The notes beneath the pieces were generated by a model. It ran no database searches and had not been told where the DNA came from. It worked only from the letters and a program-made list of their open reading frames with translations. From assembly GCA_964356795.1 (NCBI GenBank), contig CAYHIK010000001.1, forward strand, positions 3,111-67,110: a stretch of 64,000 nt of DNA, given 5' to 3'. Of the stretch, positions 21,366 through 27,268 are shown piece after piece. The stretch's first letter is position 1. Each line of letters starts with the position of its first letter. Both the position numbers and the translations under genes were made by a program. This DNA comes from an uncultured Candidatus Saccharibacteria bacterium (lineage in GTDB: Bacteria; Patescibacteriota; Minisyncoccia; 2-02-FULL-40-12; GWA2-44-9).

Positions 21366-22781
21366 TTACTTTTCTATCGTTACGTGCAGCTCACGCAGCT
21401 GTCGGGAAGAAATCGGAGACGGAGAATGCATCATGAGATCGCGCGCGTCTCCTGTCTTTGGAAATGCGAGCACTTCGCGAATGTTTGGCTCATTATGCAA
21501 GAGCGCAATCAAGCGATCCCATCCCCACGCGATACCACCATGCGGAGGCGCACCGTGTTCGAATGCAGTGAGCATGTGACCGAAGTTTTCATCGATGCGC
21601 GCATCCTCAAAGCCCATGATACGAAAGACCGCGCGAAGACCTTCTGCGGTGTGGTTGCGAATTGAACCGCCACCAATCTCCCACCCGTTGAGCACGATGT
21701 CGTATTGGGTTGTGAGAATTTCTCCCACTCGTTCAGCACTGAGGAGTAACGGCATATGCTCTGGCTTGGGAGCCGAGAACGGGTTGTGAGTAAACGTCCA
21801 TCCACCACCATCCTCTTCAGTTTTCTCAAAGAATGGAAAATCAATAACCCAGCAGAACGCCAAGAGATTCTGGTCGTTTTTATCTTCGCGTAAATCGGGA
21901 CGATCGGTGCCGTATTTCTCTATTGCATCCGCATAGCTGATGCGCGGGAATGGAACTTGTTGAATCTTCTTTTCAGGATAGCGCTTCGTCACCAAATCAA
22001 TCAGGAGTGCTTCATTGAGCGCCATCACATCTTCTCGGTTCACAAAGCTCATCTCCATATCGAGCTGTGTAAATTCGGGCTGACGGTCACCGCGCGTGTC
22101 TTCATCGCGGAAGCATCGAGCAAATTGGAAATAGCGCTCCATACCAGCCACCATGAGGAGTTGCTTGTACTGCTGTGGCGACTGAGGAAGCGCATAAAAT
22201 GAGCCCGCGTAGAGACGACTTGGCACCACGTAGTCACGCGCGCCTTCGGGAGTGCTCTTAGTGAGCATAGGCGTCTCAATTTCGATAAACTCATGGGCGT
22301 CGAGCCAATTTCGTACAAATAATTGCCCATCGTGACGCGCCTGCATGTTGCGTGCAAGCCGTGGGCGTCGCAAGTCGAGGTAGCGCCACTCATGGCGAGT
22401 GTCTTCTCCAATCTCGTATCCATCGGTGTCGAGTGGCATCGGAGGAGTTGCCGACATGTTGAGCACTTCGAGCTCGTGCGGCTCGAGTTCGATAGAGCCA
22501 GTTTCGATTTCTGAATTTCGCATCTTCTCGGGACGCTCTTTGATGAGCCCCTTAATGCGCACCACCCATTCACTACGCAGTGTCTGCGCTACCTCGTAGC
22601 AGTCGGGCGTAAACGGACCGAATACCACCTGAATTACTCCGGTGCGGTCACGTAAATCAACGAATACAAGCTTGCCGTGGTCGCGACGATTCGCAACCCA
22701 CCCAAAAAGTTCCACCTCGCTCCCCGCCATGTCCTTGGTCTTGATAATAGATAATTCCTTCATGCCCTCGCATCGTATCAT
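21366..22781 (-). CDS. aspS: aspartate--tRNA ligase (class II, short archaeal/CPR-type; could be non-discriminating)
   Basis: OB anticodon-binding N-terminus (ELFGWVANRRDHGKLVFVDLRDRTG), plus class II motifs FRDEDTRGDRQPEFTQLD and GGSIRNH. 471 aa. Confidence 0.65.
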   Translation of the reverse strand: MIRCEGMKELSIIKTKDMAGSEVELFGWVANRRDHGKLVFVDLRDRTGVIQVVFGPFTPDCYEVAQTLRSEWVVRIKGLIKERPEKMRNSEIETGSIELEPHELEVLNMSATPPMPLDTDGYEIGEDTRHEWRYLDLRRPRLARNMQARHDGQLFVRNWLDAHEFIEIETPMLTKSTPEGARDYVVPSRLYAGSFYALPQSPQQYKQLLMVAGMERYFQFARCFRDEDTRGDRQPEFTQLDMEMSFVNREDVMALNEALLIDLVTKRYPEKKIQQVPFPRISYADAIEKYGTDRPDLREDKNDQNLLAFCWVIDFPFFEKTEEDGGGWTFTHNPFSAPKPEHMPLLLSAERVGEILTTQYDIVLNGWEIGGGSIRNHTAEGLRAVFRIMGFEDARIDENFGHMLTAFEHGAPPHGGIAWGWDRLIALLHNEPNIREVLAFPKTGDARDLMMHSPSPISSRQLRELHVTIEK

Positions 22782-22800: not shown

Positions 22801-22829
22801 TTGAAAATGTTTAGTTTTTAGGGTATGAT
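22801..22829 (+). promoter_or_regulatory. sigma70-like promoter for tRNA-Lys (TTGAAA-N17-TATGAT)
   Basis: TTGAAA at 22801-22806, a 17-nt spacer, TATGAT at 22824-22829, then 12 nt to the mature tRNA 5' end. Confidence 0.5.
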
Positions 22830-22841
22830 ATGCGAGCAAAA

Positions 22842-22914
22842 CCGCCCTTAGCTCAGTTGGTAGAGCTGCTCCCTTTTAAGGAGAAGGTCGCTGGTTCGAA
22901 TCCAGCAGGGCGGA
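22842..22914 (+). tRNA. tRNA-Lys (anticodon UUU)
   Basis: Cloverleaf worked out by hand. Acceptor CCGCCCT/AGGGCGG, D-arm GCTC-AGTTGGTA-GAGC, anticodon arm GCTCC-CTTTTAA-GGAGA with U33 and A37, T-arm GCTGG-TTCGAAT-CCAGC, discriminator A. No encoded CCA. Confidence 0.85.
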
Positions 22915-23092
22915 CTATGAATCAACGGCTAATGCCCCTGCGACATTAGCCGTTGATTTTATGATTCATCCTGCTGGATTCGAAGCCCGGAGCGATGTGG
23001 CCGCACCAGCGGACACCGTGAGGGCCGGAACCCGGAGGCATTGATTCGCGACGGCGAATCAATGACCGGAGGGTGAATCCAGCAGGGCGGAC
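22898..23092. repeat. triplicated tRNA 3'-end segment: direct copies 22898-22915 and 23075-23092 (gaatccagcagggcggac), inverted copy 22967-22985
   Basis: Exact 18-bp direct repeat of the tRNA T-arm/acceptor 3' sequence 177 bp downstream, plus a 14/19 inverted copy. This is an att-site-like architecture. Confidence 0.6.
22921..22961 (+). terminator. rho-independent terminator after tRNA-Lys
   Basis: 14-bp perfect stem atcaacggctaatg / cattagccgttgat with a 9-nt loop, followed by TTTT. Confidence 0.6.
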
Positions 23093-23162
23093 AGACATTG
23101 ACATGCGAGCCTTTCTTGTGCATGATTAAGTGTGCTCGAGATATTTTTTTTGGAGGTAGCCT

Positions 23163-23381
23163 ATGAGCGCTCGGTCCCTCGAAAGGATCCAGGAAAAGCT
23201 GTGTCGCAACGATGCGGAGATACGCGCCCTTCAGGAGAAGAGGGAGCAGCTCCTAAAAGAGCTAAAGGCAGCGTGTAGCCATCCAAAGAACAGACGCCTC
23301 CAAACAGGCACCGGTGAGGTATGCGGCGTCTGCACTAAAGTCCTTGAGTGCTATCTGCCACACATCGGAAACCACATTTAG
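23163..23381 (+). CDS. small hypothetical protein (72 aa), coiled-coil N-terminus, C-terminal CGVC...C motif
   Basis: GGAGGT SD 6 nt before the ATG. A TTGACA -35 box lies at 23098-23103, directly after the tRNA-end repeat. The gene has its own hairpin terminator at 23389-23416. Confidence 0.5.
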   Translation: MSARSLERIQEKLCRNDAEIRALQEKREQLLKELKAACSHPKNRRLQTGTGEVCGVCTKVLECYLPHIGNHI

Positions 23382-23523
23382 AATCCTAGCCGACCACATG
23401 GTCGGCCTTTCCTTTGCTCTCTTATACTCATGTCTTAATGACAAATTTCGGAAGCCCGAGCTCATTGACTTTATACAATTATTATGTTATACTTAATATA
23501 GACGTTTTTCAAAGGAGGATGCC

Positions 23524-23835
23524 GTGAATATCGCAGGTATCGACAAGGCGATCGTATTGGCCGCGTTGTACAATCGCGCCCGTACCATCGGACTGGCGGG
23601 CATGATGGACTTCGACCCCACCCCACTGGACGTGCTGGTGGCGAGGAAGATCATCAAGGAACGGCGCGGTGCCAACCCACTGTACTTCGACTACTTCCAG
23701 GGGCGTTGCATGAAGATCGATCTCTCGAGAGATGAGGTCGACACCACGCTCTTCGACAACGAGTATGGCCCGGGTGCCGCCCAGCGAGCCCTCGACGCGG
23801 CATCTGCTGTCGATGCGGACATGAAGAAGAAGTAG
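23524..23835 (+). CDS. small hypothetical protein (103 aa)
   Basis: GTG start with an AAAGGAGG SD 5 nt upstream. Terminator hairpin at 23847-23884. Confidence 0.45.
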   Translation: MNIAGIDKAIVLAALYNRARTIGLAGMMDFDPTPLDVLVARKIIKERRGANPLYFDYFQGRCMKIDLSRDEVDTTLFDNEYGPGAAQRALDAASAVDADMKKK

Positions 23836-23969
23836 AAACCCCAAACGAACCCCACGCCAAACGGTATGGGGTTCAATCTTTTTAATAAAACCTCCCGAAA
23901 CTTGATTATTATCAATAAATATTGTACAGTATTTATGTCGTTTCATAGCGCAGTTAGGAGCGAGTAATT

Positions 23970-24230
23970 ATGCGCATTGAGATTCATGACTATACGCACA
24001 TCTTCGATAGCTTAACACTCAGGCGTCCGCCGACACACACACCCCTACTTCACTCTTGGGGTGTGGACGACAGTGGATATCCACGCGTCGTTGATATCCC
24101 AGGAGCGGATGTACTCCGAATCGAACGGGCATTTGCAGAATTCAAATGGGCACAGGAACGACTTCGAGGACTCAATCGTGGCCCCGAGCCAAATTCCTGC
24201 CAATGCGGAAACTGCCCAGGGAGTAGCTAG
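23970..24230 (+). CDS. small hypothetical protein (86 aa) with C-terminal CQCGNCPG motif
   Basis: AGGAG SD upstream. Followed by the hairpin agtcgcatt-ccgt-aatgcgact and T5 at 24254-24280. Confidence 0.45.
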   Translation: MRIEIHDYTHIFDSLTLRRPPTHTPLLHSWGVDDSGYPRVVDIPGADVLRIERAFAEFKWAQERLRGLNRGPEPNSCQCGNCPGSS

Positions 24231-24286
24231 GTCGTGGTCATCAAAGTCGCATTCCGTAATGCGACTTTTTCTATCACAACAATCAC

Positions 24287-25936
24287 CTACGACTTCCCGA
24301 GCGCTTTTGCGATGAGCGCGCGAAGCTCTTCATCGCTGGTAGTGCGGAATGATGCGCCCGTTGCTGTGGGGCGACTTGGCTTCTGTTCAAACTCTTCAGC
24401 ATCTGGCTTGTGTTCTATTTTCCTCCCCTTAAAGTCGACTGCTCCTTGCAATAGATTTCCCAGCGAAGCGGGAGGGCGCACCTCGGAAGCTTGTTGTTGT
24501 GGGCGCGACTGTTGCGGACGAGGCTGCTGCGGACGCGCCACTGATTGCGATGGGAATTGACCACGAGCGGGGCGCGGTGATGCTGGCCCATCATCTCGGC
24601 GGGGCGGACGCTCGCGAGCATCATCGCGAGGCGCGTAGCCCGCAGGCACGATTGGTGCGCGCCATGCTGATATGGCAGCTTCGACTTCTGCGCGCGGATG
24701 CGCGTACATCGTGCGCGAGTATTCGATAACCTCATTGCGCGTGCTCTGCGCGAGCTTTGCGGGCGTATCCATGGTCATCGCTGAAAACGCATGACTCGTG
24801 ACACCATCAATCATCAGCTTCAGATAAATCTGACGGAACCCAAGGTTCACAATATCAGTCGCCATAAACTCTGGCGCAAACTCTTTTTCCAAAAATTCGG
24901 CGTCTTCAGCTCCAACACGGAATGAAATAATCGTGCCCACGTTTCCAAATGCCGCTTCGGCAACCTTTTCGTCTAACTGCTTGATATATTGATGCCCAAC
25001 GATAAGGGATAGGTTGAATTTACGCGCTTCGGAAAGAATATTCGCAAACGAAGCCGTCGCAAAGTTTTGGAACTCATCAACGATAAGACAGAAGTCTGCG
25101 CGCTCATGCTTGGGAATATCAACGCGACTCATTGCGGCAAGCTGAACCTTGGTGATAATCATGGCCCCCAGCAAGCGCGATGCGTCCTCCCCAATGCGGC
25201 CCTTGGAAATATCGACAAGAATAATCTTCCGCTGGTCCATCGCCTCTCGCATGTTGAACGTGGATTTCGACTGGCCTACCAGGTTACGAATCAACGAGTT
25301 TGAAACGAATTGTCCGACCTTGTTCTGAATTGCTGCCGTCGCTTCACTCGCGAACTTATCAGTGTACTTTGCAAACTCCTGCGTCCAGAATGCCTTCACC
25401 TCGCTATCGGTCACCTGGTCAACAACGGTCTTCCGGTAGTCCTTTTCTGCCAACATGCGGTTGATGCCGAGCAACGTTGAGCCAGGCGCCTCCAAGAGTG
25501 CGAGGATAGTGTTGTTGAGAATGTACTCCATACGTGCCGACCATGCGTCTTCCCAAATCTTCTTGAACACCGCCATCATACCGTCCGCCACGAGGTGACG
25601 CTGATCAAATCCGACCTGTTCCATCACATTGAACCCAACAGGAAACTGCATATCTGCTGGGTTGATGAAGATCACATCTTTGACGCGCTCGGGTGGGATA
25701 TAGTCGAGGAGATCGAACACCGCATCTCCGTGGGGGTCCATAAAGCAGAGTCCACGACCGTCCTGAATATCCTGAATCGCAAGCGTCTTGAGAAGTTCGG
25801 ACTTGCCCATGCCCGATTTGCCAACCACGTACATGTGGCGGCGACGGTCATCGAGCTTGATGCCGAAATGCGTAACAGAATTTCGAAACTCTGTGTTTCC
25901 AAACAGTACTACATCATTGTCAGAATTGGCGTTCAT
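24287..25936 (-). CDS. VirD4/TraD/TraG-like type IV secretion coupling-protein NTPase (T4SS-DNA_transf domain), no TM segments; P/R/Q-rich C-terminal tail
   Basis: Walker A GKSGMGKS and Walker B LIVDEFQNF in a TrwB/TraD-type ATPase core. The low-complexity tail is RPQQPRPQQSRPQQQ. Confidence 0.65.
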   Translation of the reverse strand: MNANSDNDVVLFGNTEFRNSVTHFGIKLDDRRRHMYVVGKSGMGKSELLKTLAIQDIQDGRGLCFMDPHGDAVFDLLDYIPPERVKDVIFINPADMQFPVGFNVMEQVGFDQRHLVADGMMAVFKKIWEDAWSARMEYILNNTILALLEAPGSTLLGINRMLAEKDYRKTVVDQVTDSEVKAFWTQEFAKYTDKFASEATAAIQNKVGQFVSNSLIRNLVGQSKSTFNMREAMDQRKIILVDISKGRIGEDASRLLGAMIITKVQLAAMSRVDIPKHERADFCLIVDEFQNFATASFANILSEARKFNLSLIVGHQYIKQLDEKVAEAAFGNVGTIISFRVGAEDAEFLEKEFAPEFMATDIVNLGFRQIYLKLMIDGVTSHAFSAMTMDTPAKLAQSTRNEVIEYSRTMYAHPRAEVEAAISAWRAPIVPAGYAPRDDARERPPRRDDGPASPRPARGQFPSQSVARPQQPRPQQSRPQQQASEVRPPASLGNLLQGAVDFKGRKIEHKPDAEEFEQKPSRPTATGASFRTTSDEELRALIAKALGKS

Positions 25937-25939
25937 AGA

Positions 25940-27268
25940 TTAGCGAGTAGGAAGCATCGTGGGTGGCTGACCCTTCTTCGACTGTACGCGTGGAAGAAGT
26001 GGAGCTTTTACATTAAGGCCTGGCATGTGCCACAACGTGGCGAGCTCTTCAACATTGAGGATGAGTGGGAAATCTTTCGGATTTTTTGACGGCTTGGCGA
26101 ACGCGCGCTTTCGATACGAGCCGTACATACCCTTCTTCTTTTTCAGCGTCCCCTCATCGGCACCAAATCCTTTGTCATTCGGGAAGAGCCAGGGGAATGT
26201 GCCCTTGTCCTTAGTGCCCGCTCCCGGCTTGAAGGTGTTCATGTTGTTGTAGAACAACTGCTTAAACATTGCGGTAATACTGGATGGACGCGCGCCATTG
26301 AATGCGTCTTTGCGAGCCACATACAGTACGCGAAGCGTTGTCTTGAATGCAACCAGCGAAAGCTTTCGCTGTATGCCTTCGAGCGCAAGCTTGTCTGCAG
26401 GCGTGAGATTCCCCATCGTGAATGGTTTCTCTTCTTTCTTTTTCTCCTCCGCAGGTGTAATCAAGCCGAACTCTGTGGCGAGAAACCCAAGAAGGGTGAA
26501 TGGAGCAAGCGCAATCGTCTGCACGAGCGGAGCTTCTGGCTTCTTGGGCTCCTTGCCAATCATCTTATCGACAACCGCTTGACCGTCTTTCACCCAATCG
26601 CCACCGGTGGGGCGGAAGATGTACTGCAACCACAAATACTCCCCAGGTCGAAGGGCGCTCATCATTTCAAGCAGTGGCGCGAGTGGATCAAGTCGAGCGT
26701 ACTCATCCTTACCTCCCGCGTCTTCAAATTCAGTCCAACTCCTGATGGGGTATGCGGGTGGCTGGGAGCCGACGAACTCGGTGCCCGACACATCGTATTG
26801 CGTTGAATCAAACTCATCGGGCAAAAGCGAGATGTAATCACCCGTCATCTTAATCTCGGCTTGCGGGTATTGCGCGAACAGAAGCGCCTCAACGGTATTC
26901 CGCTGACCCTCAGTGCATCGAATATAGAAATGAGTCTCTCCCCCATGCGAGACAATCTCGAGCGAGAACCAATCCGGGACTTTGCCCACAAAATATTGAT
27001 CCTTCCACTTAATACCTCCACCGTAGCTCGCATGAAGCCCGGCAAAAAAGTTTTGCGCTGCCATCGGACTGCTATAGAGAATCTCAGGCGGTGGAACAAT
27101 CTCGAGCACCACCCATTTCATACCAGCAAGATACGCGTCTTTGAGGTAATCAAGCCAGAGTGAACGAGCAACCGCTCCAAGAATCAGCGGGAACCACACC
27201 CACCAAAACTCAAACGCGAGCAAAAAGCCCTGTCGTAATACGCTGAGAATTGACGTCGCATCATACAT
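25940..27268 (-). CDS. membrane protein genetically coupled to the VirD4-like ATPase (possible split N-terminal membrane module of coupling protein)
   Basis: Two N-terminal TM helices, then a 400 aa soluble domain with a Lys-rich tail. Its stop lies 4 nt from the ATPase start, so the two are translationally coupled. Confidence 0.45.
   Translation of the reverse strand: MYDATSILSVLRQGFLLAFEFWWVWFPLILGAVARSLWLDYLKDAYLAGMKWVVLEIVPPPEILYSSPMAAQNFFAGLHASYGGGIKWKDQYFVGKVPDWFSLEIVSHGGETHFYIRCTEGQRNTVEALLFAQYPQAEIKMTGDYISLLPDEFDSTQYDVSGTEFVGSQPPAYPIRSWTEFEDAGGKDEYARLDPLAPLLEMMSALRPGEYLWLQYIFRPTGGDWVKDGQAVVDKMIGKEPKKPEAPLVQTIALAPFTLLGFLATEFGLITPAEEKKKEEKPFTMGNLTPADKLALEGIQRKLSLVAFKTTLRVLYVARKDAFNGARPSSITAMFKQLFYNNMNTFKPGAGTKDKGTFPWLFPNDKGFGADEGTLKKKKGMYGSYRKRAFAKPSKNPKDFPLILNVEELATLWHMPGLNVKAPLLPRVQSKKGQPPTMLPTR

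Follow-up and report, generated by a model that had tools for sequence, protein, structure and literature searches.

Three short open reading frames (ORFs) at 23163-24230 of a 64-kb stretch of contig CAYHIK010000001.1 (hereafter the window) were analyzed together with their expression signals and the variable slot that holds them. The frames, named ORF1, ORF2 and ORF3, lie on the same (+) strand without mutual overlap, at the coordinates already given by a sequence-only reading of this DNA, and independent gene calls in public assemblies of the locus gave the same trio of 72, 103 and 86 aa. The three genes and their signals are as follows.

23098-23126, + strand: promoter-like site of ORF1, sigma-70-like (TTGACA, 17 nt, CATGAT; 10/12 matches)
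23152-23157, + strand: Shine-Dalgarno (SD) sequence of ORF1, GGAGGT, 5 nt before ATG
23163-23381, + strand: ORF1, 72 aa, ATG start (ORF listing)
23389-23416, + strand: intrinsic terminator of ORF1 (hairpin 23389-23406), GCCGACC-ACAT-GGTCGGC plus CTTTCCTTTG; -13.9 kcal/mol, z -3.4
23465-23493, + strand: promoter-like site of ORF2 (TTGACT, 17 nt, TG-TATACT; 10/12 matches, extended -10)
23511-23518, + strand: SD of ORF2, AAAGGAGG (AAGGAGG), 5 nt before GTG
23524-23835, + strand: ORF2, 103 aa, GTG start (ORF listing)
23847-23884, + strand: intrinsic terminator of ORF2 (hairpin 23847-23874), GAACCCCA...TGGGGTTC plus AATCTTTTT; -18.8 kcal/mol, z -4.3
23902-23930, + strand: weak promoter-like site of ORF3 (TTGATT, 17 nt, TACAGT; 8/12, found by eye, below the scan threshold)
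23956-23960, + strand: SD of ORF3, AGGAG, 9 nt before ATG
23970-24230, + strand: ORF3, 86 aa, ATG start (ORF listing)
24244-24275, + strand: intrinsic terminator of ORF3 (hairpin 24244-24267), AAAGTCGCATT-CCGT-AATGCGACTTT plus TTCT; z -3.7

Each ORF has its own SD and its own intrinsic terminator. The SDs are 5-7 nt long, while an SD of at least 5 nt was found in 1 of the 145 spurious small ORFs of the window. The strong SDs of the trio also differ from the SD-poor host genes, 36 of 52 likely host genes in the window having no SD even when alternative starts were allowed, and the translation signals of ORF1-3 look either foreign to the genome or tuned for high expression. A GC-rich hairpin with a T/U tract was found just past each stop. 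The stems begin 8, 12 and 14 nt past the stops of ORF1, ORF2 and ORF3, respectively, and are followed by at least 5 T within 8 nt; the hairpins range from -13.4 to -18.8 kcal/mol (z -3.4 to -4.3), and none of 200 shuffles folded as well. When one fixed rule was applied uniformly to the + strand of the whole 64 kb, 8 terminator motifs were detected, and 4 of them were located at 22921-24267, after a tRNA-Lys gene and after each of the three ORFs. The last one ends up 20 nt from the stop of a convergent VirD4-like gene. Promoter-like sites were also enriched in the region (5, against 1.4 +/- 1.2 expected), and three of these were correctly placed, namely in front of the tRNA (10/12 matches), ORF1 and ORF2. 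The spacers between the ORFs contain 37-39% GC, compared with 52% for the window. Since each ORF has its own SD and terminator and two of them have a promoter-like site, in an arrangement far beyond chance, three separate transcription units were the best reading of these signals, from which we infer separate transcripts. The three monocistronic units that had been proposed by the sequence-only reading were thus borne out at the level of signals.

ORF2 and its family

ORF2 is clearly a real protein gene, because it belongs to a conserved family and its codon score of 0.24 lies within the host range (host genes 0.29 +/- 0.09, spurious ORFs -0.09 +/- 0.13). Relatives at 49% and 38% identity were obtained by a word-indexed search, and all share the N-terminus MNIAG, by which the GTG start of ORF2 was confirmed. 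A search of 1.84 billion cluster representatives (50% identity) with a profile made from ORF2 and these two homologues retrieved 2,360 of them at E <= 1e-3 and 1,006 at E <= 1e-10. The PHROGs family phrog_12532 was matched by 46 of 85 ORF2 relatives (best 1.3e-8). The match of ORF2 itself was weak (E 0.0025, residues 54-76), and with a profile match across the conserved core ORF2 was counted as a phrog_12532-like member. An antisense ORF of 145 aa (23509-23946, - strand) spans ORF2 from end to end. That coding is on the + strand is shown by the conserved family of ORF2, and the antisense frame is probably a shadow of the high third-position GC content (GC3) of ORF2 (0.79).

The near-invariant residues of the family are L12, A13, L15, Y16, N17, G23, G26, F55, D56, Y57, G60, R61, K64, N81 and G82, all of which are retained in ORF2 except N81, where ORF2 has Y. 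These residues suggest a binding or catalytic patch, and the part of it formed by Y16-N17, F55-D56-Y57, R61 and K64 may interact with a factor of host or phage origin or with a small ligand. The AlphaFold prediction of ORF2 from the 85-sequence alignment was confident (pLDDT 94.2, pTM 0.86) and gave an alpha/beta protein with the element order beta-alpha-beta-alpha-alpha-beta-beta-beta-alpha-alpha. A Foldseek search of the PDB with this model returned no fold match (best E 5), and in BFVD two viral proteins were matched with TM of 0.71-0.78; the matches were all uncharacterised Caudovirales proteins.

No sequence of ORF1-3 scored above threshold against Pfam, PHROGs, NCBIfam, PADLOC or PDB sequences, apart from the weak match between ORF2 and phrog_12532. 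Among the 85 family members no meaningful match to Pfam, NCBIfam or PADLOC was found, with ORF2 and its 84 relatives matching 0 PADLOC families, and the longer members showed no fused domains. Ten clusters of the family were looked up and no source gave a name for any of them, and no paper on phrog_12532 was found. The claim of the sequence-only reading that none of the three proteins matches a family therefore applies to the orphans ORF1 and ORF3, and not to ORF2, which belongs to a large unnamed family overlapping phrog_12532.

The family has 171 confirmed loci in IMG/VR. Its members were found in Dulem virus 39 (XCD07496.1), Streptomyces phage Gilgamesh (gp28) and Xanthomonas phage Olaya (QTZ82375.1), and also in the Xanthomonas/Xylella phage group, in phiCbK-like Caulobacter phages and in two megaplasmids, where the homologues are always hypothetical or unannotated. 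The clustering of homologues with mobile elements, which had been proposed as a check, was thus seen in phage contigs, in IMG/VR and in cultured Streptomyces, Xanthomonas, Xylella and Caulobacter phages. No conserved partner gene was found in 83 loci, and for this reason the family was regarded as stand-alone; ORF2 is probably a small alpha/beta protein that acts by itself. Olaya and Dulem virus 39 had pointed to phage recombination modules, and this link was rejected: RecT, exonuclease or SSB genes lie within 4 kb in 12 of 85 loci, which is about the chance level by a rough estimate that was not based on a control set. Through ORF2, a candidate phyla radiation (CPR) chromosome is connected with a very large family of phage proteins for which neither a name nor a Pfam model nor a solved relative exists. 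The family is common in phage contigs and in tailed phages, and it has more than 2,000 clusters at 50% identity, a confident predicted fold and members in cultured, tractable phages.

The slot beside tRNA-Lys and its structured element

The surroundings of the trio were compared with related loci. The features that frame the slot are listed below.

21366-22781, - strand: AspRS, left of tRNA-Lys
22801-22829, + strand: promoter-like site of tRNA-Lys (promoter scan)
22842-22915, + strand: tRNA-Lys (UUU), left anchor of the variable slot (ARAGORN; Rfam tRNA 69.2 bits)
22921-22957, + strand: tRNA-Lys terminator hairpin, with a stem of 13 bp in the scan and ~17 pairs in the fold, then TTTTAT
22963-23096, + strand: structured element, ~130 nt, three-way junction (fold, covariation, repeat)
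24287-25936, - strand: VirD4/TrwB-like ATPase, 549 aa, convergent, right anchor of the slot (Pfam TrwB_AAD_bind 1e-10)

The comparison set contained 80 related loci, and 287 relatives of the VirD4-like gene were present in GTDB species genomes. ORF1, ORF2 and ORF3 were absent from all 80 loci, even though identity to the window reaches 82% for the VirD4-like protein and 88% for AspRS. In the close relatives (L005 to L013) the identities were 65-82% for the VirD4-like protein and 70-88% for AspRS where present. The order DUF8128, VirD4-like, slot, AspRS was kept in all seven relatives that reach AspRS (L007-L013), the contigs of L005 and L006 stopping before it, and tRNA-Lys stands in the slot in L006-L013. 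An insert was found in L007-L012, while L013 has the same order and no insert. The content between the VirD4-like and AspRS genes is different in each lineage, and the sequence past the VirD4-like stop is unrelated across lineages. No Pfam family was found for the cargo proteins of the relatives, which are the following.

L006: a single 110-aa protein
L007-L009: zinc-ribbon-like and coiled-coil small proteins; L007 and L009 also have a 149-aa protein
L010 and L011: a protein of ~175 aa
L012: two paralogous small proteins
L013: nothing

The orientation of tRNA-Lys with respect to the VirD4-like and AspRS genes is shared by the window, L006, L008 and L011 and is reversed in L005, L007, L009, L010, L012 and L013. 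Depending on the lineage, the cargo is found on the 3' or the 5' side of the tRNA, a pattern suggestive of inversions or rearrangements that recurred at tRNA-Lys. The VirD4-like gene is a conserved core gene of the lineage. Together with the adjacent DUF8128 gene (24287-27268, - strand) it forms a pair that is conserved in the close relatives checked and is surrounded by core genes, not by those of a conjugative element. For the ATPase, a match to the PADLOC model mad8 (E 1.8e-19) was obtained as well. Beyond the ATPase gene follow, in order, the DUF8128 protein, a sigma-70 region-4 protein, SecF and SecD. Other genes within about 10 kb encode Mur-ligase, FemAB-family, FtsW/RodA-family, glycosyltransferase-4 and D-Ala-D-Ala carboxypeptidase proteins, and then RNase H-like and M16 peptidase proteins. 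The host is an ultra-small bacterium of the Hainich groundwater. Identical copies of the locus were found in the Hainich H41 0.1-µm groundwater assemblies and in a 165-kb NCBI contig, and the nearest genomes are metagenome-assembled genomes of Patescibacteria labelled Paceibacterota/Parcubacteria.

The most unusual feature at the locus is the structured element, which is flanked by the terminator of tRNA-Lys and the promoter-like site of ORF1. At its 3' end (23075-23092) the last 18 nt of tRNA-Lys (22898-22915), from GAATCC of the T-loop to the discriminator, are repeated without a mismatch, with 0.04 such copies expected by chance, and the variable cargo begins right past the copy. The 5' strand of the element pairs with the copy, and a z of -8.3 was obtained for the fold of the 185-nt stretch 22916-23100, in which the tRNA terminator hairpin is included. 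The element of L006 is 81.5% identical over 130 nt with compensatory changes, and its similarity to the window ends exactly past the copy, where the differing cargo starts. A pattern scan of metagenomes returned 18 loci, 2 of which were chance matches, so that 16 further members of the element family were obtained. Among the 14 loci compared (window included), there are 11 in which the element repeats, without mismatch, 18 nt or more from the 3' end of a tRNA just upstream on the same strand; these represent 10 distinct sequences and involve tRNAs Lys, Ser, Met and Gln. The conserved core stands 61-90 nt past the tRNA in 10 of the 11, the gap being 166 nt in L186, and an equivalent long hairpin 3' of the tRNA is present in the other element-bearing loci as well. 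RNAalifold gave a three-way junction of 29 pairs, 15 of which show compensatory changes. In the alignment 92% of the cells pair, compared with 76% after shuffling and 33-41% after sliding, and the covariation score of 0.426 (vs 0.136) was reached by 0 of 500 shuffles. The covariance-model match of the element was 118.8 bits.

With this covariance model the element was absent from the other 78 Paceibacteria loci (~0.9 Mb), and neither in the window nor in 7 sister loci did any Rfam family overlap it at E <= 1. Its identity with a known RNA was rejected accordingly, as twister, tmRNA, SRP and Y-RNA-type models were included and none matched. Two patterns that were searched as attP in the phage contigs of IMG/VR gave 0 matches. 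A role as a cis leader of the downstream gene was also rejected, since the downstream content varies and consists in some loci of a tRNA gene or of genes that face the other way. Elsewhere the element is followed by GIY-YIG and Bro-N genes (L178), by a DnaG-like gene recognised by eye (L183), by uncharacterised small ORFs or by another tRNA. The literature on tRNA introns in Patescibacteria concerns group I introns of the anticodon loop and not the element. The copy has stayed identical to its tRNA though the hairpins of the element have diverged, and to judge from this difference it is maintained by selection or by gene conversion. In L186 (595-963) an extra partial 3' half of tRNA-Ser stands between tRNA and element, giving three tandem 3'-end copies, and in L173 (1449-1629) a second, weak covariance-model match (29.8 bits) lies just 3' of the element; both repeats look like tandem insertion events.

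The element is probably a novel one that marks the cargo junction. It is conceivable, though we would not call it probable, that it represents a hitherto undescribed type of tRNA-linked structured RNA or of miniature integrative element, a landing pad for gene capture in Patescibacteria that has no linked integrase and for which coiled-coil proteins with CxHP...CxxC like ORF1 may be a partner. The tRNA-like attachment sequence would then serve as a docking site at which small foreign cassettes are captured and exchanged, and the turnover of such islets would be explained if the element were an attachment or docking module of this kind.

Nature and origin of the islet

On balance, and with moderate confidence, ORF1-3 were read as real, separately transcribed, moron-like accessory genes that were acquired horizontally in a tRNA-linked hotspot. 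We infer their horizontal origin and function. The trio is absent from the 80 syntenic loci, its GC3 deviates, and the ORF2 family is phage-borne. The GC3 is 0.64 in ORF1, 0.79 in ORF2 and 0.48 in ORF3, compared with 0.56 +/- 0.07 in the host, and the value of ORF2 falls in the top 2% of host 90-codon chunks. Since the three values differ from each other, more than one acquisition is suggested. The islet would thus be a lineage-specific insertion of ~1.2 kb in a Patescibacteria (Paceibacteria-type) chromosome, filling a recombination-prone slot that reaches from tRNA-Lys to the convergent VirD4-like gene. Each cassette would comprise a promoter, a strong SD, a short ORF and an intrinsic terminator, and the cassettes would have been gained horizontally, probably in more than one event. 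ORF3 would contribute a small protein with a C-terminal CxCxxC cluster. Their most likely role may lie in conflicts between phage and host or involving mobile elements, for instance in exclusion, anti-defence or regulation. The trio would be an ordinary case of reduced-genome Patescibacteria gaining small genes of foreign origin, each expressed by itself, at a hotspot linked to a tRNA.

The sequence-only reading had compared the arrangement with phage or plasmid regulatory and anti-defence loci. The mobile or phage link was substantiated for ORF2 by the IMG/VR loci, whereas regulation and anti-defence found no direct support in PADLOC, Pfam, NCBIfam or PDB matches or in a conserved partner of the ORF2 family, and this part of the label is only a guess.

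Several observations weigh against a moron-like origin or against the coding status of its members. The codon score of ORF2 is host-like. That of ORF1 (-0.13) falls in the middle of the range of spurious ORFs, and one antisense frame outscores its own frame. In the word-index search ORF1 recovered only itself among 5.8 billion proteins, and ORF3 likewise had no match in the protein database other than itself, the four contigs inspected for ORF3 all being Hainich H41 assemblies or a Logan run; with this search, distant homologues of such short proteins may be overlooked. The copies of the locus do not differ from one another, so that selection on ORF1 and ORF3 is not measurable. PADLOC gave just DruK for ORF1 (10.7 bits, E 0.054) and nothing for ORF3. 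No integrase, recombinase or phage structural gene was found by domain search within ~10 kb on either side of the islet, and no third, degenerate tRNA-fragment repeat closing it was found with up to 6 mismatches allowed.

The coding points among these would be explained if only ORF2 codes, with ORF1 and ORF3 being chance ORFs in small RNAs or decaying remnants of foreign DNA, a reading that we consider unlikely. It agrees with the score of ORF1, with the score of ORF3 (0.00), a value reached or undercut by 0.2% of real gene chunks, and with the lack of homologues, to which tblastn added no match for ORF1 or ORF3 in the 80 syntenic loci or in the element-bearing loci. On the other side, the SD of both ORFs lies at the right distance from ATG, a situation seen in fewer than 1% of spurious ORFs and in less than half of the host genes, and each ORF exactly spans the space from SD to terminator. 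The frame of ORF3 is the best of six, and atypical codon usage is expected of recent imports. By these searches both ORF1 and ORF3 are true orphans, their codon usage is atypical, and they are probable but unproven genes, with translation likewise probable, on the grounds of SD, start and terminator geometry and the independent gene calls alone. It had been stated beforehand that a lack of conservation or non-coding codon statistics would point to spurious ORFs. ORF2 is clear of both; ORF1 and ORF3 are unconserved and atypical in codon usage, but they carry SD and terminator.

The protein features of the two orphans were then considered. The motifs CGVCTKVLEC and CQCGNCPG were verified as residues 54-63 of ORF1 and 77-84 of ORF3. 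ORF1 is basic (pI 9.0), and its N-terminus (residues 1-38) is amphipathic and coiled-coil-like, with 8 of 11 heptad a/d positions hydrophobic. Its C-terminal Cys/His cluster consists of C38-S-H40-P, C54-G-V-C57, C63, H67 and H71, which are enough ligands for a predicted metal site, and the protein is probably a coiled-coil dimer with such a site at its C-terminus. No zinc-ribbon Pfam model matched ORF1, and the zinc-finger models all stayed below threshold. The zinc-ribbon-like fold that the sequence-only reading had suggested was not upheld for ORF3. A classical zinc ribbon is defined by two knuckles and four ligands, and ORF3 has just three cysteines in one cluster (C77-x-C79-x2-C82) at the extreme C-terminus, with no second knuckle and with residue 28 as the nearest histidine; judged from these residues, it is therefore not a classical zinc ribbon. 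The sole Pfam hint for ORF3 was zf-Paramyx-P (E 0.01, 15.7 bits vs a cut-off of 25). At the element-bearing locus L172 a 111-aa protein is encoded 3' of the element (element-oriented, reverse-complement 854-1189). It consists of a long coiled coil ending in CKHP-x5-CQLC, a layout that echoes the coiled coil plus CSHP-x13-CGVC of ORF1. Homology between the two found no support in BLASTP, which gave no significant match, and since about 3 chance occurrences of the motif were counted in a six-frame translation of 1.7 Mb, the resemblance is only a lead.

These features bear on the proposal that ORF1 is a zinc-binding regulator of the TraR/DksA kind, in which a coiled coil with a C-terminal zinc finger binds RNA polymerase, and that the islet is mainly regulatory. 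The size of 72 aa, the pI and the heptad N-terminal helix followed by C38-x-H40 ... C54-x2-C57 fit the proposal, as does the protein of the same layout in L172. Nevertheless, neither zf-dskA_traR (PF01258) nor any other zinc-finger Pfam model matched even at E <= 0.1, no PDB sequence matched, and the likeness to L172 is open to the statistical objections given above, so that we find this proposal distinctly doubtful. It is more improbable still that ORF1-3 work jointly as one system, such as a defence, toxin-antitoxin or regulatory module. The three genes are adjacent, on one strand and in one variable slot, and both ORF1 and ORF3 have Cys clusters; yet in the 83 phage and plasmid loci with relatives of ORF2, no ORF1-like or ORF3-like gene and no conserved partner adjoins them, each gene has a separate terminator, GC3 differs among the three, PADLOC gave no match, and so far no other genome carries two or more of the trio together. 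Vertical inheritance as poorly conserved host genes is hardly credible, because the host-like codon score of ORF2 and the lack of an integrase and of a far-side flanking repeat are met by the absence of the trio from 80 of 80 related loci, including those with 76-82% identical neighbours, by a slot content that differs in every lineage, by ORF2 relatives that are overwhelmingly phage-borne, and by the extreme GC3 of ORF2 for host sequence.

Comparison with known systems

ORF1 can be compared with the TraR/DksA-type small zinc-finger regulators of plasmids and phages (Pfam PF01258). It is like them in size, in its N-terminal helix and in its C-terminal Cys cluster. Unlike them, its ligands are CxH...CxxC instead of CxxC-x17-CxxC, no Pfam match was found, and the likeness is a putative one.

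With phrog_12532 and the uncharacterised Caudoviricetes proteins, ORF2 shares the core LAALYN...G.G...FDY..GR.MK.DL...D..NG.GAA. Compared with proteins of this type, ORF2 is short, as it does not have the C-terminal extension of many members, and it is located in a bacterial chromosome.

Intact tRNA genes accompanied by a displaced 3' fragment starting in the T-loop are relics of integration at tRNA genes (PMC4383910, PMC9897764). The locus is like the genomic islands in tRNA genes that are recognised by the Islander principle (PMC4383910; PMC9897764), since a complete tRNA-Lys and a displaced 18-nt 3' fragment form a direct repeat of the T-loop/junction crossover class, variable foreign cargo adjoins, and tandem 3' fragments occur in the sister locus L186. 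It is unlike them in that no integrase and no distal repeat were found here, the interval between the repeat copies is only ~160 nt and non-coding, and ORF1-3 stand outside the interval bounded by the repeats, where no integrase with cargo is enclosed.

A further comparison is with phage morons. The original definition of morons is reportedly that of Juhala et al. in 2000. They are independent transcription units spread by horizontal transfer (PMC3594210). Like morons, each ORF of the islet has a promoter-like site (a weak one in the case of ORF3), an SD and an intrinsic terminator of its own, the base composition is off that of the neighbours, the cassettes are set between conserved genes, and ORF2 is of a phage-borne family. 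Unlike the usual morons, three cassettes stand here in tandem, and they are placed in no recognisable prophage but among core cell-wall, AspRS, VirD4-like and SecDF genes.

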